The notes: a model not told the origin generated them from the sequence alone. A stretch of 32,000 nt of DNA from Vallitaleaceae bacterium (GCA_965140555.1 OZ223259.1:876058-908057), one strand, 5' to 3'. Counted from the first letter of the stretch, positions 14,993 to 26,212 are shown. Numbers and translations are program-made.

Positions 14993-15874
14993 CTATCGGT
15001 CTTCTCGTATACTATTCGATATAAAGGCTATTGCCATCATTCCCGGTCCTACATGGGAAGCAATCGTTGCTGACAAGCAGGTTACTATGACAGGATTTGT
15101 TATGCCTGCAGCCCTGAAACTTTCAATAATACGCTCTGCTTCTTCCGGAAGATGTGCATGACCTACAACAATCATTTGTTTGTCATCCGACAGATTTTCC
15201 ATTACTTTGTTCAGCATATACTTATAGGCTTTGGCCTTGCCCCTTAACTTACTAAACGATACTAATTTACCACGATGATCCATCGAAAGAACGGGCTTCA
15301 CGGATAGCATAGTACCCACATATGCTGATGCCGCCGGTATTCGTCCCCCATTTTTTAAATGCATAAGATCGTCTACAACAAACCAATGATTGGCTTGCAA
15401 TTTAATCGATTCTATATGTTGAAAAATCATCATTGTTTCCAACTCTTTTTCAACATCATGAACGGCTTCTATAACAAGTGCCGCCAGTCCTATTGATGCT
15501 GCCAATGAGTCAATAATATGTATCGATGCCTCTGGGTAATCTTCTTTAACCATATCAGCCGCAAGAAATGCATTCCCAACTGTCCCGCTTAGCCCTGAAG
15601 AAAGACCGATATAAATTATCTCGTTATCGTTCTCAATTTGCTTTTTAAAGCACTCGTAAAATGTCATCACATTAATCTGAGATGTTTTTGGCATTGTTCC
15701 ATTATCAAGCTGTTCATAAAAAAATGTATGTGAAAACGTATCACCTAGATCGTCCACATACTCTCTATCCGCAATATTAACCGGCATTCCTAAAACAATT
15801 AAATGTTTCTCATGGGATCGGACAAAATCCAAACTGAGATCCGAACTTGAATCAGTTATGATTATCGTATTCAT
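14993..15874 (-). CDS. DegV-family fatty-acid-binding protein (FakB-like)
   Basis: IIITDSSSDLSLDF at the N-terminus, a typical DegV length of 293 aa, and HVGPGMMAIAF near the C-terminus. GGGAGG lies 6 nt upstream. Confidence 0.88.
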   Translation of the reverse strand: MNTIIITDSSSDLSLDFVRSHEKHLIVLGMPVNIADREYVDDLGDTFSHTFFYEQLDNGTMPKTSQINVMTFYECFKKQIENDNEIIYIGLSSGLSGTVGNAFLAADMVKEDYPEASIHIIDSLAASIGLAALVIEAVHDVEKELETMMIFQHIESIKLQANHWFVVDDLMHLKNGGRIPAASAYVGTMLSVKPVLSMDHRGKLVSFSKLRGKAKAYKYMLNKVMENLSDDKQMIVVGHAHLPEEAERIIESFRAAGITNPVIVTCLSATIASHVGPGMMAIAFISNSIREDR

Positions 15875-17410: not shown

Positions 17411-19255
17411 TTAATGTCTCCGTTCCTTTATTTTTTCTATAAATGACAGAGGTAATGTCTGTTCAACTGCAAATGCTACAGCCACAGCTCCTTCTCCGGC
17501 ACTCATGGCAATAATCGTTGATGAAGCACATATATATGTAGGTTCAAATCCTAAGTGCTTTTCTAGAATTCTACCTATATTTTGGGCTTCTTCTTTTTTA
17601 TCAACATAGACGATACTATACGCAGTAATCGTACATTTCTCATGATATTTGAGAATTTCTTTAATCAAGGCTTTTCGGCTACCGTTCTTGGACCAGGCCA
17701 GTCGTCCTAATGCCCCTTCTCCGTCTTTATTCAACGAGATTAGCGGTCTGAACTTAATCTTCTCTAATATATTACCCATCTTTACGGTAAGACGCCCTGA
17801 ACGAACCATAGGTTGTAAATCTGCGATTCGAACAAGTATTCTTACATTGCCTCGGGCTACATTAAGGAAATCAACAACTTCCTGTACAGACTTCCCTTTA
17901 TTTAATTCACCGGCTGCCATATATGCTAATAGACCTTGGGCTGCAGAGTTTTGCTTAGAATCGATTACATGGACTCTTTTACGTCCTTCATTCATCGGCT
18001 TTGCAACCTTCATAAAATTATTATAGGTTCCGCTTAATTTTCCTGATACATTAATGACTATAAGAGAGTCATAATAGCTTAATAAATATCTTAAACGATT
18101 ATCTATGGTTGCCACATCCGGCTGTGATGACGCAACCGTCTCTCCTTGATTTACTGCTCTTATTACATCTTGATTATGAATGGTCAACTTGTCAAAATAC
18201 TCACTCTCATCAATACTAATCCGCAAGGGTATTGTATGTATTTGCAACTGCTCAAGCAATGTTGGCGAGAGATCTGCAATAGAATCAACCACAATCCCAA
18301 CTTGATGTTGACGGTGGTAAGCAACCTCCACCTGCTCTTTCATATCATCAATCTTTTGATATCGAATGGATCCTTGCTTTTCTAAGAGTTGTACAACTTC
18401 TCGCGGTTGATTCGTATGAATATGAACACGTGTGACCAGTTTATTCCCTGCAACCACAATAGCATCTCCATAAGGTTTTAAGATATCCTTAATCCTTACC
18501 TCCGGATTATTAACTTTGTATAACACTTCTGTACAATAGCGATATGCAGGTACTTCATCTCCTACATGATTGTGCTCATGTACGCTTCTAATCTCATCTT
18601 CATCAATCTCTTCATCGGCCATTTCTTCTAACTGAAGATGCGTCTGTCGACTTTTCAAAAATTCCAGCATACCTTCAATAAATAAGACAAAGCCTTTGGC
18701 TCCTGAGTCAACAACTCCCGCTCGCTTTAGAATATCTAATTGTTGCTTTGTATGATCTAATGCAATGGTAGCTTCTTTGTAACCATATTCAATGACATCA
18801 ATAAAACTTTTACCTTTTGCCCGCTCCAACTTCAATGACTCTGTAAAAATGCGAATAACTGTTAATATAGTGCCTTCTACCGGTTCTCCCAATGCTTCAT
18901 AGGCAAAATCCAACGCCTGCTGATTAGCCGAAACAAAATCATCAATACTTACGTCTTCTTGACTATTGATTCCCTCACTGATACCTACAAAATATTGTGC
19001 AAAAATAACCCCCGAATTACCTCTAGCACCACTTAATGCAGCCTCAGCAAGTATTCCAAAGGCTTCCTTAAAATTATAATTGTCGTTTGCTCTATATAAA
19101 ACAGCTTTCATTGTAGAGAATAAATTGGTTCCGGTATCTCCATCAGGTACCGGAAACACATTAATCTGATTTAAATACTCTTTCTGTCCCATGACATTTT
19201 TTGCTCCTGAAAGGTAAGCATAATAAAGTCGTTTTCCCTCGATAGTTTCTGTCAT
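17411..19255 (-). CDS. DAK2-domain (FakA-like kinase) protein fused to a full-length DegV-like domain
   Basis: Dak2 motif [14 protein letters not shown] and ARGNSGVI; a central His/Cys cluster (HEHNH...YRYCTEV...RVHIHTN); C-terminal DegV-like [16 protein letters not shown]...YSIVYVD...GEGAVAVAF. The track starts at 19273. I prefer ATG 19255 (MTETIEGK), which has AAGGAGG (19262-19268) 6 nt upstream. Confidence 0.85.
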
Positions 19256-19474
19256 TCTAGTCCTCCTTAACATGTTCTCTCATATATATATAATCCGGCG
19301 TTGTATTATTAATTAATAATAATTATTACTCATCAATTATACCTTATTCTTTAATTGGTATCAATCACGAAATAAAGCTAGAAAAATTATGTAAACTTTG
19401 CTAAAATAGAATAAGTTTAACGCATCACTGCGACATTGCTTTCTCAGATAAAAATAATGAAAGAAGGTATTACT

Positions 19475-20533
19475 ATGAACACTCCGGTTATAGAAACGAA
19501 TTTTGCTTTTGAATTCATTTACAACCTAATGGGGATTGCTTATTACGAAACTAAAAACCCATCCACCGAAGATTTATCCACACAACGTTTTGCCCATTTT
19601 GTGACGGGTTACATTCACGAAATCTATAATGATATTCCACATATGGTCCGTAATGACATACACTTGTTCTTAAATGATTTCAGTAGCTTCTATGTTTCTT
19701 TATTACATATAGTTATTAATGAAACGATTCAAACACCTTTAGAACTTATAGAACGTCTTCGCAATATGGATATACATGAATTTTTAAACCTCTATCTAGA
19801 AGGAAATGAAATTCCACTCCAAACAGATTCCCCTAAAGACGCGTTGGATTCAGCTTTGGATGAGCTCACTAAATCCCGTCATGACTTAGCTAAGGATAAG
19901 GAACTCTTCTATGAATTTCTTGAGTTTGGTAGCGTCATCATGAAACGACTTGACGAATCTTTTTCCTACTATTACCGCCATTTTTTCCAACCACAAGAAG
20001 CCGAATTGGATCGCCAACTTAAACGCCTTCAAAAACATCATCAAATGATCTATGATGATAATCCTGAAGGATTCATTAACTCGATTCTTTTTCAAAGCAA
20101 GGAGTCTCTCAATGATTCGCAAACAGAAATCCATATCTACCTAGGCTATTATTATGGTGATCGAATTTCTGTCGCCTACGGAAGCAAGCATGAAGTATAT
20201 TTTTTCTATGGCGCAAGCGCCGAGAAAAAACTCTATTCCGAAAACCACCGTATCCAATATGATGAGTTAATCAAATCCTTAGCCGATGATACACGACGTA
20301 ATCTCATACGGTTTTTAATGAATTCCCCTCATTATAATAAGGAAATAGCTGATCATCTAGGCATCACTACTGCCACAATCAGCTATCATATAAGTCGTCT
20401 CGTTGATATAGGTATTATCCACTTGAAATATCAAGAAGGTAAACGTATATACTATCAGGTAGATATGGATCGATTCAATCAATTATTTGATGGTCTACGT
20501 CGTTATTTGATTTCGTCTGTAACCGACTACTGA
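19475..20533 (+). CDS. ArsR-family winged-helix regulator with a large unrecognised N-terminal domain (about 270 aa)
   Basis: The C-terminal LADDTRRNLIRFLMNSPHYNKEIADHLGITTATISYHISRLVDIGIIHL is an ArsR/SmtB HTH. The track starts at TTG 19436. ATG 19475 has AAGAAGG 8 nt upstream. The N-terminal domain may be DUF5937-like, but that is from memory and unverified. Confidence 0.7.
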   Translation: MNTPVIETNFAFEFIYNLMGIAYYETKNPSTEDLSTQRFAHFVTGYIHEIYNDIPHMVRNDIHLFLNDFSSFYVSLLHIVINETIQTPLELIERLRNMDIHEFLNLYLEGNEIPLQTDSPKDALDSALDELTKSRHDLAKDKELFYEFLEFGSVIMKRLDESFSYYYRHFFQPQEAELDRQLKRLQKHHQMIYDDNPEGFINSILFQSKESLNDSQTEIHIYLGYYYGDRISVAYGSKHEVYFFYGASAEKKLYSENHRIQYDELIKSLADDTRRNLIRFLMNSPHYNKEIADHLGITTATISYHISRLVDIGIIHLKYQEGKRIYYQVDMDRFNQLFDGLRRYLISSVTDY

Positions 20534-22098
20534 TTCAACAAACGCTCAAAACTCATACCATATTGATCAGCAATCCTTTTGGCGTAACTACGACCTAGCG
20601 GTTTACCCATTTCAATTTTATAGGGTGCATGCTCCATATCCCGACCTGCAATGAAACTTATCGGTTGCATGTTCGGGATTTCTTGTTGTATAGAATCTGA
20701 AAGTTCATGTAAATGGGTATTAAATATCACATAACTTTTCTGATCATATATTGCATGAAGGGTTTCTATTGCAATTTGCAAACTTTCATGATGGGATGTT
20801 CCTGAAAAAGATTCATTCATAAAATAAAAAGCCTGTCCATCTCCCGCGTCATAAAGCATTTTAAATCGACGACATTCTTCCCCCAATCGGCCATATTCCA
20901 CCGTATCTTTCTCTTCTCTAGGAAAGTGTAGATAGATACCGGACACATAAGGTAACATCGCTTTCTCTGCGGGCACAGGAAATCCCAATTGGGCAAACCA
21001 GATACATTGTGCCAAAGCTGTCGTTATCGTCGTTTTCCCTCCTCTATTTGCTCCTGTAAGAATCAGAATCCTCCTATTCTCATCAAAGGATATACTGTTA
21101 TTTACAACCAATTCCTTATCTTTGGTATACCCTAGTTGCAAATTGTACAGTCCTTCAATGGCTCCTCCCGTTTTCCACTCAGGAAACGTCCATCGATGCC
21201 CTCGTTTCTTTAACTGCTGAACATGGCGATAACCAACTATATAATACGGTAATTCCATTTTCATTAGACTTAAATATTCCAAAATCTTCTCAATAAACTG
21301 ATCACAAAAACGAATCAACTGTAGCATCGCCGGTTCAATAATCTTCTCCAATTGGTTCAGCGCATCCGGCGGTGCAATAGACTCTCTGGCAAAAATTTTA
21401 CGCGGAATGAGCATGACTTCTCTTACGCCCTTACCTATATAATACTCCATTTTTTTATTAAAGCGACTGTACTTGAATTCCTCTTCGCTTAATTCAAGCA
21501 AAATCGCTTCTATCGGTTGTAAGTACTCATCCAAATTCAAGCCGATTTTCATACTCTTTATTTCAGATTGTAATGTTTTGATATGATGTACATCTTCCAA
21601 AAAAGCTTCATATATTGATGAGGAAATAATCTCTTTATACATCTGATGCAATTGTCGTAGTCCATCGGAAGCCAGTGGCAGTTTTTCAAGTGCTGCTATT
21701 GCTTGTCCAACCATTTTATGAATGAGCAACACCTCTTCCATACGCTTCATCAAATTATAAACTGTTGCCTCTTTTTCAAAAGCGAATTTACTCATCGTTA
21801 AAAGATGGTATGCTTCCTCTCCTACGCCATAGAGTTCAAACAGTATATCCTCATGGTCTAAAAACTCTTTCATAATCCCTTGCCTGTAAACCGTATCTTT
21901 TTGGTGTACAGGATACTCTTGAATCAATGCACGTATGTTAATTTTATCCTCACTTTGCAAAATTTCTTCCAACACATCAATGGTCATATCATCCATATCA
22001 TCATCTGATAGTCGTCCGGTTGCAGACTCTCGACTGTGTTCCCAAAGTAAACTAATTCCGACAGAAGGCAGCTGATTTATAGGCATCTCTAAACGCAT
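20527..22098 (-). CDS. MutS-II-lineage ATPase paralogue B (MutS domain III/V only; no mismatch-binding domain, no Smr)
   Basis: Walker A ILTGANRGGKTT, FPVPAEKA, Walker-B region FYFMNESFSGTSHHESL, NTHLHEL, and a MutS2-like C-terminal YKIEMGKPLGRSYAKRIADQYGM. The ATG at 22098 overlaps the upstream paralogue by 10 nt; AAGGTGA lies 6 nt upstream. Confidence 0.8.
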   Translation of the reverse strand: MRLEMPINQLPSVGISLLWEHSRESATGRLSDDDMDDMTIDVLEEILQSEDKINIRALIQEYPVHQKDTVYRQGIMKEFLDHEDILFELYGVGEEAYHLLTMSKFAFEKEATVYNLMKRMEEVLLIHKMVGQAIAALEKLPLASDGLRQLHQMYKEIISSSIYEAFLEDVHHIKTLQSEIKSMKIGLNLDEYLQPIEAILLELSEEEFKYSRFNKKMEYYIGKGVREVMLIPRKIFARESIAPPDALNQLEKIIEPAMLQLIRFCDQFIEKILEYLSLMKMELPYYIVGYRHVQQLKKRGHRWTFPEWKTGGAIEGLYNLQLGYTKDKELVVNNSISFDENRRILILTGANRGGKTTITTALAQCIWFAQLGFPVPAEKAMLPYVSGIYLHFPREEKDTVEYGRLGEECRRFKMLYDAGDGQAFYFMNESFSGTSHHESLQIAIETLHAIYDQKSYVIFNTHLHELSDSIQQEIPNMQPISFIAGRDMEHAPYKIEMGKPLGRSYAKRIADQYGMSFERLLNQ

Positions 22099-23678
22099 TT
22101 CTCATCACCTTCTTTCTCTTTACCTGTCAATTGACTATACGTCACCCCATATCTTGATGCAATTTCCATAGCATAACTTCGCCCTAACGGTTTACGCACT
22201 TCCATTTCATAACTGATTTGATGATTATTCATCTTCGTCACCAAACTCTTAGGATATTGAGGTGTATGTATTAAATGTTCCTCCGTTTGTTCGTCTATCC
22301 AGTGCGTAACTTCATCATATAATTCATGTAGATGCGTATTATACACAAAAGGTATCCCCTTTGACAGCAACGCTTTTACTGCCTCTGCCGCTATACTCAA
22401 ACTCTCTAAATGACTCGTTCCCGCAAAGGATTCATTCATCAAGACTAACGTTCTGGGATTTGTTTCTTTAAATAGTGCGACAAACATCTCACATTCTTTT
22501 CCAAATTTACCTTTATCCAGATTTTCTTTCTCAGACACGGGAAAATGGGATAGAATATTATCTGCCAATCCCATATGTGCTGACGCTGCGGGCACATAAA
22601 GACCAAGTTGTCCCAACAGTTGTATCTGCCCGATACATTGAGTGAACGTTGTTTTACCGCCTCGATTGGCTCCTGTTATAATATAGGCTTGATTGCTTTT
22701 ATCCATGTCAAAATTATTAGTAATAATCGTCTCTTCCTGATCTCTCAATGCAAGATTGATATTATATCCCTTTATAAAATGTAAATTGTAGTCTCCTTCA
22801 TGAAAGGTCGGCTTGCACATTGGCAACCCTTTGCTTTCCATCTGAGTAATAAGCCTGTGACCAGATTCATAAAATGTCACTTCATCATGTAGCTGAATAA
22901 ACGGTGTAATATCCATGCGGGTATATGTTTTGACAAAATTCTCCATCTTAGGTTTATGTTCTCTTAATGCATACTCAATCTCTTCCAATACTTTATAGTT
23001 TAAACGTCCGATACGAAAAACAGGCACATAACTGGCTATCCGTTGTCCTAAGAACTCCGGATTTAAGGACAAGGTGTCTGATACATGCCTGAATGCTTTT
23101 GGATAACGGTGATGATGCGTTTCAACACTCGTCACCTGAGCAAACTTCGGACGAAGTCCTGATGTCATATTCACACTCAACACGGCACTTTTAATTTGAG
23201 AAAAAATATATTTGATTTCGCGTAAATCTTTTTTCATTGTTTTAAATGTATCCGTTTCCAGATTTCTTTCCACATCTTCTTTCAGACACAAAAGACCTTG
23301 AGACGTCAGCGGATAAAACCTTAGAATTTGGTTTAGCTCCTCTAACGCCTCAATAGATTTTTCCATCAATATCACCAAATCAATAATACGATACAAATTG
23401 GATTGCTCATATAACTTTGCATTATATAATGGTTTCAAATCATAAAATCGTTCCAATGCTTCCGATAACTCCTGCATCAGACCTTTATTTTGATAGAAAT
23501 CTTCCAATATTACCTGGCGATAGTGAATGGTCTCTTTGTCCATGCATAATGAAAAAAGAATCTCATCATTTGCAAGGAGTCTATCATAGACTCCTTGCAA
23601 ATTGAGATTCTCAATAATCTGTCGATCTAACGTATGTCGATTACTCTCCGGCAACCATATGATACTATTAAACTCCAT
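22089..23678 (-). CDS. MutS-II-lineage ATPase paralogue A (MutS domain III/V only; no mismatch-binding domain, no Smr)
   Basis: Walker A IITGANRGGKTT (nt 22647-22673), LYVPAASA, Walker-B region LVLMNESFAGTSHLESL, NTHLHEL, and C-terminal YEMEVRKPLGRSYAMEIASRYGV. The SD GGGAGA lies immediately after the adenosyltransferase stop. Confidence 0.8.
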   Translation of the reverse strand: MEFNSIIWLPESNRHTLDRQIIENLNLQGVYDRLLANDEILFSLCMDKETIHYRQVILEDFYQNKGLMQELSEALERFYDLKPLYNAKLYEQSNLYRIIDLVILMEKSIEALEELNQILRFYPLTSQGLLCLKEDVERNLETDTFKTMKKDLREIKYIFSQIKSAVLSVNMTSGLRPKFAQVTSVETHHHRYPKAFRHVSDTLSLNPEFLGQRIASYVPVFRIGRLNYKVLEEIEYALREHKPKMENFVKTYTRMDITPFIQLHDEVTFYESGHRLITQMESKGLPMCKPTFHEGDYNLHFIKGYNINLALRDQEETIITNNFDMDKSNQAYIITGANRGGKTTFTQCIGQIQLLGQLGLYVPAASAHMGLADNILSHFPVSEKENLDKGKFGKECEMFVALFKETNPRTLVLMNESFAGTSHLESLSIAAEAVKALLSKGIPFVYNTHLHELYDEVTHWIDEQTEEHLIHTPQYPKSLVTKMNNHQISYEMEVRKPLGRSYAMEIASRYGVTYSQLTGKEKEGDEKCV

Positions 23679-23687
23679 TGTCTCTCC

Positions 23688-24281
23688 CTACTGACGCAAT
23701 GTCATCTCTTCCTCTTCAATCTTGAACACATAGTTCAAATAACGCGCAGTCTGGAACAAATAATCGGCTAATCGATTAATGTATTGATAATCCACAGGTA
23801 CTTGCTGAATGACCTTTTGTTCCAATAACTCCTCAACATGCCTTACAAATACACGTTCACATCGCCGTGTAACACTCCTTACAACGTGGGTATATGTTGC
23901 AGTTACATGTCCGCTCATATAAATAAAATGATGTAGAACACCTGTTTTTTGCGTCATTGTATCAATACGCTGTTCCAAATAATCAATTTCTTCTTTGGAT
24001 ACAAGCTCCTGTCCGAATCCTGTTGTGACATCACTCCCTATGCGAAACATTGCATATTGTATGTTCGCAAGATCTTTGCAAAGCACATCAAACAAATCCC
24101 GGTCCACATTATCAGCCAAATTACTGACTTCGTTATTGATTAGGCTTCTTAAATGCCCGACTCCACTGTTGATTTCATCAATACTGCCTTGAAGTTCAAT
24201 CAGCAGACTTCCTTTCGATACTTTATCTCCATAAAAATTGGAAGTTTGACCATAATCACCTTGTCTTGTATAAATCGGCAT
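23688..24281 (-). CDS. PduO-type ATP:cob(I)alamin adenosyltransferase (MMAB family)
   Basis: N-terminal MPIYTRQGDYGQTS...KVSKGS, then GSIDEINSGVGHLRSL, VVRSVTRRCERVFV and INRLADYLFQTARYLN match the PduO N-terminal-domain pattern. GGAGG lies 5 nt upstream, directly after the AKR stop. Confidence 0.88.
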   Translation of the reverse strand: MPIYTRQGDYGQTSNFYGDKVSKGSLLIELQGSIDEINSGVGHLRSLINNEVSNLADNVDRDLFDVLCKDLANIQYAMFRIGSDVTTGFGQELVSKEEIDYLEQRIDTMTQKTGVLHHFIYMSGHVTATYTHVVRSVTRRCERVFVRHVEELLEQKVIQQVPVDYQYINRLADYLFQTARYLNYVFKIEEEEMTLRQ

Positions 24282-24296: not shown

Positions 24297-25250
24297 CTAA
24301 TGTAGGCTATAACTCGCTTGTTCTATGCGCATCATATCCTCTTTCGTTAATTGTATATCTGAAACGCCTAGTGCACATCGAAGCTGTTGTGGATTTCTAA
24401 GTCCTACAATAGCACCCGTAACAGCCTCATGTTGTAATGTCCATGCAACTGCCACTTGCGGCACTTGGCATCCTTTTTCCTGTGCTATTTCCTGTAATGT
24501 ATCAACGACTTGCAAATGCACTGATAATTGAGGCTCATTAAACGCATCGGCTGATTTTCTCCAATCATCTTCCGGCAGACTAAGGATACGATCACGCGTC
24601 ATCTTCCCGGTTAGCAATCCACTCGCCATTGGTGAATAAACAATCGTCCCAATTTGATGTTCTTTACAATAAGGTAAAATATCGTTTTCAATATCCCGTG
24701 ACAGCATATTATAAGGCGGTTGTAGTGATGTTATCGGCGCTATATCCGCTATCCGTTCCATTTGACTCACCGTGAAATTGGATACACCAAGATAGCGAAC
24801 CTTACCTTCTCGAACCATTTCTGACATTTCTGCCCAGGCTTCTTCTATGTCTTCTTCCGGATGTGGCCAATGAATCTGTAACATATCAATAACATTGACG
24901 CGTAGACGTCGCAGACTACTCTCCACTTCCTTGCGAACACTCTTAGCTGTTAATTTGTGTTGAATTTCATTTTTGTCATTCCATGTAATTCCAAGTTTAG
25001 TAAAAATCAACGGTCGGTTATGCATATGTTTTAATGCTCTTCCGATAACCTCTTCACTGTGTCCGCATCCATAGATAGGTGCCGTATCAATCCAATTAAT
25101 GCCTTGATCCACTGCTCGAATAATGGTCTCAATCGATTCATTATCTTTTTGATTTCCCCATCCTAGTCGTCCGGGTCCACCTATAGCCCAAGTACCCAAT
25201 CCTACTTGTGAAATTACTAAGTCACTATTTCCTAATCGTTTTTGCTTCAT
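24297..25250 (-). CDS. Aldo/keto reductase
   Basis: KRLGNSDLVISQVGLGTWAIGG, IDTAPIYGCGHSEEVIGRAL, LQIHWP and YLGVSNF are typical AKR blocks. The track starts at 25304. I prefer ATG 25250 (MKQKRLG), which still overlaps the upstream regulator gene by 26 nt. Confidence 0.85.
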   Translation of the reverse strand: MKQKRLGNSDLVISQVGLGTWAIGGPGRLGWGNQKDNESIETIIRAVDQGINWIDTAPIYGCGHSEEVIGRALKHMHNRPLIFTKLGITWNDKNEIQHKLTAKSVRKEVESSLRRLRVNVIDMLQIHWPHPEEDIEEAWAEMSEMVREGKVRYLGVSNFTVSQMERIADIAPITSLQPPYNMLSRDIENDILPYCKEHQIGTIVYSPMASGLLTGKMTRDRILSLPEDDWRKSADAFNEPQLSVHLQVVDTLQEIAQEKGCQVPQVAVAWTLQHEAVTGAIVGLRNPQQLRCALGVSDIQLTKEDMMRIEQASYSLH

Positions 25251-26156: not shown

Positions 26157-26212
26157 ATTATATCACGCCTCGTGATGTACTAACAAGATACGCCGTGCCT
26201 CTTCTTGTTCAA
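26157..26212 (-). promoter_or_regulatory. Promoter region of the five-gene operon (two competing -35/-10 assignments)
   Basis: Best consensus is TTGTTA (26186-26181)-N18-TATAAT (26162-26157), but it abuts the SD and would leave a leader of 6 nt or less. The alternative is TTGAAC (26212-26207)-N16-TATCTT (26190-26185). A second inverted repeat AACAAGA (26182-26188)/TCTTGTT (26203-26209) overlaps the alternative boxes. Confidence 0.4.
26162..26176. promoter_or_regulatory. Operator-like palindrome ATCACG-N3-CGTGAT immediately upstream of the regulator SD
   Basis: Perfect 6-3-6 inverted repeat (26162-26167 and 26171-26176). It lies between candidate -35 and -10 boxes, or at about +2 to +17 of an alternative promoter. 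Confidence 0.45.

Follow-up and report, generated by a model that had tools for sequence, protein, structure and literature searches.

Two overlapping genes for short MutS-like proteins in a predicted adenosylcobalamin-responsive operon of a Vallitaleaceae bacterium

In 2007 the short MutS subfamilies (MutS3, MutS4 and relatives) were defined, and no function has been assigned to them in the years since. The short-MutS family is abundant in gut Clostridia and Chloroflexota. A 32,000 nucleotide (nt) stretch of the genome of a Vallitaleaceae bacterium (GCA_965140555.1, OZ223259.1:876058-908057), called the window here in its whole length, contains two adjacent genes, A and B, whose products are both MutS-like ATPases of little more than 500 amino acids (aa). 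The locus raises the question of what two such proteins do and whether they do it together. The pair is a clean co-evolving case for asking whether bacteria have evolved heterodimers of the MSH type, and its place in an operon makes an orphan family testable. A and B probably work as a two-part clamp. The favoured reading, to which a probability of roughly 0.45 is given, is that the two form an ATP-gated clamp that engages nucleic acid when the cell responds to light or vitamin B12 (B12) stress. A predicted input of adenosylcobalamin (AdoCbl) or light, by way of a CarH-like XRE repressor and its operator, gives a clue to when A and B are needed.

Two short MutS-like proteins that diverged together

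A and B belong to the MutS superfamily. Both pass the Pfam cutoff for MutS_V (PF00488) with 78.1 bits for A and 56.7 bits for B against a cutoff of 30.2, the profile check that the initial annotation of this DNA had proposed. Both display the features of the domain V ATPase, i.e. Walker A, Walker B, the THxxEL His-switch and the C-terminal helix-turn-helix (HTH) dimerisation motif. Every motif quoted in that annotation is found in the sequences: GANRGGKTT and NTHLHEL in both proteins, YVPA in A and PVPA in B, LVLMNESFAGTSHLESLSIA in A, and KPLGRSYA..IA in both. The last of these had been called MutS2-like; it is present as described, but MutS2 is not alone in having the C-terminal motif G-x-S-Y-A/G..[IV]A, the Taq MutS counterpart being PASKSYGVEVAAMAGL.

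The N-terminal part of both proteins had been described as similar to the MutS lever and core. The Pfam MutS_III profile (PF05192) gives 25.7 bits with A, which is under the cutoff of 34.1, and no match with B, but the structure model of A agrees with the description and that of B displays the same layout. AlphaFold models show a predicted local distance difference test value of 79 and a predicted template modelling (TM) score of 0.77 for A, and values of 80 and 0.79 for B. The A model consists of lever helices (positions 48–160), a beta-hairpin clamp-like insert (164–186), the return of the lever (230–282) and an ATP-binding cassette (ABC) ATPase (299–520). In both models the short beta-hairpin insert, partly of low confidence, is situated at the position of the MutS clamp domain. 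The top Foldseek match of the A model is the Thermus thermophilus MutS2 core (7vuf), with an E-value of 1e-19 and a target-normalised TM score of 0.54. Further matches are MSH2, MSH3 and MutS, with approximately 550–600 aligned columns and a probability of 1.00. These models suggest that A and B are reduced to the lever/clamp/ATPase part of MutS.

Pfam searches show no match to MutS_I or MutS_II in either protein, nor is Smr or KOW found, and both chains end approximately 10–20 residues past the dimerisation motif. Domain searches of the window agree with the earlier claim that domain I, Smr and an adjacent mutL are lacking, as neither Smr, MutS domain I nor MutL is encoded anywhere in the 32 kb. 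Among NCBIfam models, TIGR01070 (MutS1) gives 77 bits for A and 51 for B against a cutoff of 642, TIGR01069 (MutS2) gives 60 and 55 bits against 400, and NF052383, a 508 aa truncated MutS-like protein named 'lysine 5,6-aminomutase reactivase ATPase KamC', gives 80.7 and 55 bits against an equivalog cutoff of 300. Thus A and B are about equally distant from all three models and far under the curated cutoffs. The same holds for the relatives sampled, where NF052383 gives 57–120 bits. Positions 56–459 of A align to positions 44–438 of the KamC model, and the MutS1 and MutS2 models match mainly the ATPase domain. A and B do not appear to be mismatch repair proteins, since they have neither a mismatch-binding domain nor a Smr nuclease and no MutL partner is encoded in the window. 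The homology of the ATPase domain to MutS1, MSH and MutS2 would suit a canonical MutS1 mismatch repair function, or an endonuclease or ribosome-splitting activity of the MutS2 type, but with domains I and II, Smr, KOW and mutL missing and with scores so far below the MutS1 and MutS2 cutoffs, such a role is extremely improbable and is effectively refuted by the missing defining domains.

The ATPase motifs deviate from those of MutS in two places. Walker A is at positions 336–344 of A. Walker B reads Asn415-Glu416 in place of the Asp-Glu of MutS (LVLMNES compared with LVLLDE in Taq MutS), and the Asn in place of the Walker B Asp (the equivalent of MutS D693; Asn415 codon at 22434-22436 of the window) is found throughout the subfamily. 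The ABC signature S-T-F-x-x-E is likewise replaced throughout by G-[KR]-[FL]-G-x-E-C. Both variants could be used as diagnostic motifs. They suggest altered handling of Mg2+ and ATP, and together they point to a slow, switch-like ATPase. The ATPase motifs are all retained in the A clade and in the B clade, and both nucleotide sites look competent. A model in which one subunit is degenerate and its ATPase site inactive, as known from certain heterodimeric ABC proteins, is ruled out by this retention of every motif. A defence role was also considered and dropped, as PADLOC shows no meaningful defence-system match for A or B.

The initial annotation had proposed two open reading frames of 529 and 523 aa with a 10 nt overlap and an AAGGTGA Shine-Dalgarno sequence, and a direct reading of the junction gives the same result (Table 1). 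The protein sequences of A and B in public gene calls are identical to the open reading frames read here. The 3′ end of A is GAG AAA TGC GTT TAG, with the stop codon at 22091..22089, and the ATG of B is at 22098..22096, within aaATGcgtttag. The 3′ end of AAGGTGA is 6 nt upstream of this ATG. Codon 5 of B is a second in-frame ATG, 2 nt past the A stop, and thus the coupling of A and B stands with either start. A and B share 28% identity over 481 aa (BLASTP E-value = 3e-57), and in a profile comparison the two families match along their whole length, across 516 columns, with 100% probability. Resemblance of this degree is well outside what chance would give. The proposal that they are strongly diverged paralogues of one architecture is borne out by these alignments and by the B model.

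Relatives fall into three tiers. Tier i, with at least 51% identity to A, consists of A-B pairs with the B12-type regulator upstream. Tier ii, at 39–45% identity, comprises pairs in Vallitalea and relatives, which are found in unrelated contexts. Tier iii, at 27–32% identity, consists of stand-alone single genes of approximately 560–570 aa, present in Ruminococcus, Lachnospiraceae, Oscillospiraceae, Chloroflexota and others; the Chloroflexota branch of these single-gene relatives contains more than 3,500 protein clusters. The lever domain of A is rare, with 212 representative clusters matching among 1.84 billion, and no KamC is found among 10 of the 212 that were sampled.

B comes directly after A in each of the 12 distinct loci with a pair that are represented in the tree, mostly with an overlap of 1–38 nt, and a metagenome scan gave further pair loci. 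No locus with A alone or B alone was seen among those examined. Each of the three groups is monophyletic with 100% bootstrap in a tree built by neighbour joining from 12 A, 12 B and 32 singleton sequences, and the A and B subtrees have identical topology. A-A and B-B pairwise distances correlate with r = 0.976 and a slope of 1.0 (mirror-tree). It had been asked whether A and B form two clades that always co-occur; with every locus in the tree adjacent, this is what is found. The duplication looks specific to the Vallitaleaceae-related lineage in the tree, the Chloroflexota members examined being single genes. The best explanation of these sequence patterns is that A and B arose from one old duplication of a single-gene short MutS, common in Clostridia and Chloroflexota, which was presumably homodimeric.

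Another lineage carries a candidate fusion. P0192 (L170:6001-9321) is an 1106 aa protein in which one complete short-MutS unit follows another head to tail. The two units share 30% identity, and each is closer to the singleton clade than to A or B. The gene for P0192 has comEC on one side and rpsT/holA/gpr on the other, and recG and radC lie upstream. As P0192 rests on one contig and a frameshift artefact is possible, it may be an independent 'Rosetta stone' for two different units that act together.

From their joint inheritance, the overlapping genes and the mirrored divergence, an obligate A-B heterodimer is inferred as the most economical reading. Alternatively, A and B may each form a homodimer with a diverged role, the adjacency being left over from a tandem duplication. 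Complete ATPase and C-terminal dimerisation motifs are present in both proteins and the single-gene relatives presumably homodimerise, as this explanation would have it. However, strict adjacency, mostly overlapping frames, equal rates and mirrored trees are maintained over deep divergence, no A-only or B-only locus was seen, and the P0192 fusion is independent, so that separate homodimers appear very doubtful.

At one of the tier ii loci (L001:6527-7849, Vallitalea guaymasensis), a gene for a rubredoxin-domain NAD(P)H oxidoreductase is found approximately 150 nt before the A-B pair. This is an enzyme linked with the oxidative-stress response of anaerobes, and it is not a conserved neighbour at other pair loci.

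The operon and its predicted B12-dependent repressor

A and B are the last two of five tightly packed minus-strand genes, in the order regulator, aldo-keto reductase, PduO, A and B. This context, with a CarH-like B12-binding repressor and PduO, was missed in the initial annotation. The ATG of the aldo-keto reductase lies within the last 26 nt of the regulator gene, 15 nt separate the aldo-keto reductase from PduO and 9 nt separate PduO from A, and no internal terminator is found in the five genes. A predicted promoter, with 10 of 12 hexamer matches and an extended −10 TG, is situated 11 nt upstream of the GTG start of the regulator. The product of pduO is the enzyme that makes AdoCbl. The aldo-keto reductase is part of the operon only in the window genome; none of the related loci has it there.

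The B12 module of the regulator matches the CarH structures 5c8a and 5c8d as well as 8jbs, and W135-x9-E145-H146 and E184-x-H186-x-x-G189 are invariant in five orthologues. The N-terminus is of the XRE/HTH_3 type and not the MerR-type DNA-binding domain of CarH. The regulator is predicted to be an AdoCbl-dependent autorepressor. A palindrome, ATCAC-N5-GTGAT, overlaps the −10 box and is the only such site in the window; a search with the strict motif over 1.94 Mb of fetched loci gives 22 sites. A corresponding palindrome directly precedes the regulator gene in most of the regulator-bearing loci that were examined, namely in L007, L010, L092, L093, L099, in L176, which does not carry the pair, and also in Halothermothrix orenii (L173) and Thermohalobacter berrensis (L174), the regulators of which are 32–41% identical. 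The palindrome is degenerate in L009 and L012, and L175 is an exception where it is located 1.3 kb from the regulator gene. Being positioned over the −10 box, kept upstream of regulator genes and unique in the window, the palindrome constitutes a strong phylogenetic footprint for a predicted autorepression of the whole operon. An Rfam scan shows no match in the window and thus no cobalamin riboswitch.

The regulator is found immediately upstream of A in every tier i locus, representing approximately seven lineages, with PduO between the two in the window and in L093 (50% PduO identity). In L007 the regulator stop overlaps the A start by 11 nt. The A/B cassette therefore looks as if it was put under the control of a regulator-PduO unit in one sub-clade and has stayed there as its proteins diverged by roughly half.

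The regulator family is small and comprises 27 clusters. In loci without A and B it is accompanied by PduO, by a divergent DICT-domain gene or, in T. berrensis, by an energy-coupling factor (ECF) transporter S-component. In H. orenii, a gene with aldo-keto reductase and Fer4 domains is found approximately 1 kb from the regulator. The regulator-PduO unit looks like an AdoCbl homeostasis or light switch, and the family resembles an AdoCbl-responsive switch, as yet undescribed, whose DNA-binding domain is not of the MerR type. The XRE-CarH regulator, its operator and the PduO target would make a compact AdoCbl-responsive switch, which is predicted here and testable in its own right.

What the pair may do

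In the favoured reading, A and B would be two subunits of a MutS-family ABC ATPase, each with a lever, a shortened clamp-like insert and an ATPase/dimerisation domain, that would have been inherited, translated and diverged together since the duplication, as an obligate heterodimer predicts. The CarH-type AdoCbl-binding XRE repressor is predicted to bind the palindrome that overlaps the −10 box of its own promoter. Photolysis of AdoCbl by light, or a shortage of it, would derepress the operon, and A, B and PduO would be made. The substrate of A/B may then be damaged or branched DNA, or stalled translation complexes. To our knowledge, the biochemically studied MutS-family members, KamC excepted, all act on DNA or on ribosome-RNA complexes. 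A nucleic-acid clamp is favoured for this reason, and because a B12 context is missing from most loci of the pair and of its single-gene relatives. CarH/LitR regulons typically hold photodamage-protection genes. If the clamp reading is true, the pair represents a new branch of bacterial genome or translation surveillance, induced by light or B12 stress. The initial annotation warned that a DNA role cannot be assumed. The caution is right, but for a different reason than the one it gave (MutS2 action on collided ribosomes), namely the KamC reactivase and the B12 operon.

Several observations weigh against this reading. The locus L176 (7001-8553) carries the regulator and PduO (54% identity) and no A or B, and its flanks are orthologous to those of the window (ABC-F 83% and ArsR-like 60% identity). 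The simplest reading of L176 is an AdoCbl-sensing feedback loop on the adenosyltransferase. The regulator and operator are found in none of 10 distant pairs, and single-gene relatives show no conserved neighbour or partner in any of 33 dereplicated groups. With the regulator link limited to one sub-clade, the operon context says little on ancestral function. The genes that travel with the regulator, PduO and the ECF S-component, handle B12 and are not DNA repair genes, which favours a B12 role for the pair. Most relatives that the searches list by name belong to the Vallitaleaceae, a family of largely anaerobic organisms of sediment or subsurface, and thus light may not be the relevant signal.

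The main rival takes up this B12 theme. A and B would be a KamC-like cobalamin reactivase or cofactor-exchange chaperone, with ATP driving the ejection of photolysed or oxidised cobalamin from the CarH-like regulator or from AdoCbl enzymes, and PduO then re-adenosylating the cobalamin. The arrangement parallels the sets of reactivase and adenosyltransferase in pdu, eut and kam clusters, and a figure legend of one paper (PMC3149608) places a mutS-family gene in lysine-fermentation clusters. The operon encodes a B12-binding protein and PduO beside A and B, PduO recurs in L093 and L176, and the other neighbours of the regulator are B12-themed as well. A and the relatives P0128 and P0159 all match the KamC model near full length. 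However, the KamC scores are far below the family cutoff and do not stand above those for MutS1 or MutS2, and the window contains no gene for an aminomutase or another AdoCbl enzyme. In approximately 150 loci of distant pairs and singletons no full-length B12-type regulator or PduO is found nearby, other B12 genes not being part of that screen. The regulator and PduO are retained in L176 in the absence of A and B, so A/B is not required in cis for the regulator. The literature searched contained no primary paper on the activity of KamC. On balance this rival is unlikely; if true, it would show a MutS fold repurposed for cofactor repair beyond KamC.

Among these loci, XRE proteins found beside some singletons contain no B12 domain. 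Weak B12-regulator matches in L061 and L062 involve only the HTH part.

A more specific proposal is that the operon encodes its own reset circuit, A/B being a MutS-fold cofactor-exchange machine for a B12 photoreceptor. Light or oxidation would break the Co-C bond of AdoCbl on the CarH-like repressor, A/B with ATP would remove the dead cobalamin, and PduO, possibly with reduction aided by the aldo-keto reductase, would re-adenosylate it so that the repressor is reloaded. This is a rather improbable scheme. If it holds, the idea of a MutS-like reactivase, so far applied to enzymes, would also cover a transcription factor, and the scheme would bear on how CarH-type sensors return to the dark state in vivo.

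The operon link may also carry no functional message. A two-gene cassette could have landed behind an autoregulated regulator-PduO module and be read through, with A and B keeping the role of the stand-alone family, unrelated to light or B12. In keeping with this, the pair occurs in unrelated contexts in Vallitalea and other relatives, where the operator is absent, the regulator and PduO stand alone in L176, and the make-up of the locus varies, with or without the aldo-keto reductase and with or without PduO. Set against these points, the arrangement is kept across the approximately seven tier i lineages with A down to 51% and the regulator to 37–48% identity, the two genes overlap by the 11 nt noted in L007, and no promoter-length gap is found between regulator and A in tier i loci. 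Simple read-through is quite unlikely as well.

Other genes in the window were read along with the operon (Table 1). The convergent ArsR-HTH gene overlaps the 3′ end of B by 7 nt with its own 3′ end. It is 55–60% conserved in all tier i loci and also in L176, and since L176 lacks A and B the gene represents local synteny and is not part of the pair. The 470 nt that separate the divergent ABC-F gene from the operon promoter contain a small open reading frame, MKRVNHLFFYIMFSCRTTEKGIRKGAKSRTML, which has a good Shine-Dalgarno sequence but may be spurious. The Dak2/FakA/DegV protein and the separate DegV gene are probably a fatty-acid kinase A/B system, unrelated to the MutS pair.

Table 1. Positions of the operon, its control elements and neighbouring genes in the window
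Feature	Position	Strand	Basis or remark
MutS-like subunit A, 529 aa	22089..23678	−	Open reading frame read; Pfam MutS_V
MutS-like subunit B, 523 aa	20527..22098	−	Start within the last codons of A; layout as A
PduO-type cob(I)alamin adenosyltransferase	23688..24281	−	TIGR00636 135 bits (cutoff 108); Pfam Cob_adeno_trans 7e-39
Aldo-keto reductase	24297..25250	−	Pfam Aldo_ket_red 1.4e-82; likely start is the ATG at 25250
Regulator, XRE-HTH and CarH-type B12-binding, 306 aa	25225..26145	−	Pfam HTH_3, B12-binding_2, B12-binding
Predicted sigma-70 promoter, TTGTTA, 18 nt spacer, TG-TATAAT	26157..26186	−	Consensus match only
Predicted palindromic operator ATCACGAGGCGTGAT, ATCAC-N5-GTGAT	26162..26176	none	Overlaps the −10 box
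Convergent gene, 365 aa, C-terminal ArsR-type HTH	19436..20533	+	N-terminal region of approximately 270 aa without Pfam match
Small open reading frame, 32 codons	26263..26361	−	
620 aa Dak2, FakA-middle and DegV protein near a separate DegV gene	14993..15874 and 17411..19273	−	

Comparison with known systems

A bacterial heterodimeric MutS, set apart from the homodimeric MutS of bacteria, was put forward as a novelty in the initial annotation. This was overstated, as Lin, Nei & Ma 2007 (NAR 35:7591; PMC2190696) had defined MutS4 as proteins centred on MutSac, of unstudied function, and had reported adjacent MutS4A and MutS4B genes in which the stop of one overlaps the start of the other. Paired overlapping MutS paralogues are thus already known in bacteria. 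In both cases MutS is reduced to its C-terminal ATPase part, and the 10 nt overlap of the window pair has its counterpart there. MutS4 was found in T. tengcongensis, four species of the Chloroflexus group and two Thermoplasmatales (PMC2190696). A Clostridia-class Firmicute (Thermoanaerobacter tengcongensis) and Chloroflexi represent the same phyla as the window family; this match is suggestive, the comparison being one of arrangement, architecture and phyla. No named Chloroflexus or Thermoanaerobacter proteins are found among the matches listed, including those of a search with a Chloroflexia member, and no B12-regulator link was reported for MutS4. What is new here is that such a pair is recruited into an operon of an AdoCbl/CarH-type repressor with a predicted operator and PduO.

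KamC resembles A and B in its length of approximately 500 aa, its MutS-like lever and ATPase without domain I or Smr, its B12 context and the nearly end-to-end alignment of A with its model. The differences are scores of about a quarter of the family cutoff, the absence of kamD/kamE neighbours in the window, the presence of two paralogous subunits and a B12 partner that is a transcription factor and not an enzyme. MutS2 (7vuf; ribosome-bound in B. subtilis, 7qv3) also consists of lever, clamp and ATPase without a mismatch-binding domain, but it is a homodimer, whereas the window encodes a pair of paralogues, and A and B lack the C-terminal KOW or Smr extension and carry Asn in place of Asp in Walker B.

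The eukaryotic MSH2-MSH3, MSH2-MSH6 and MSH4-MSH5 proteins are co-evolving paralogous MutS subunits as well, and form heterodimers of the kind inferred here. MSH4-MSH5 also has no domain I. However, the origin of the eukaryotic pairs is independent, the window proteins are much shorter, and in A and B both ATPase sites are equally conserved. With CarH/LitR the regulator shares the four-helix bundle and Rossmann B12 module, the invariant Wx9EH and ExHxxG motifs, and an operator over the promoter, which is predicted here. It differs in an XRE/Cro-type and not a MerR-type DNA-binding domain, in an operator that is a simple palindrome, and in its cargo, which consists of PduO and a MutS-like pair in place of carotenoid genes.

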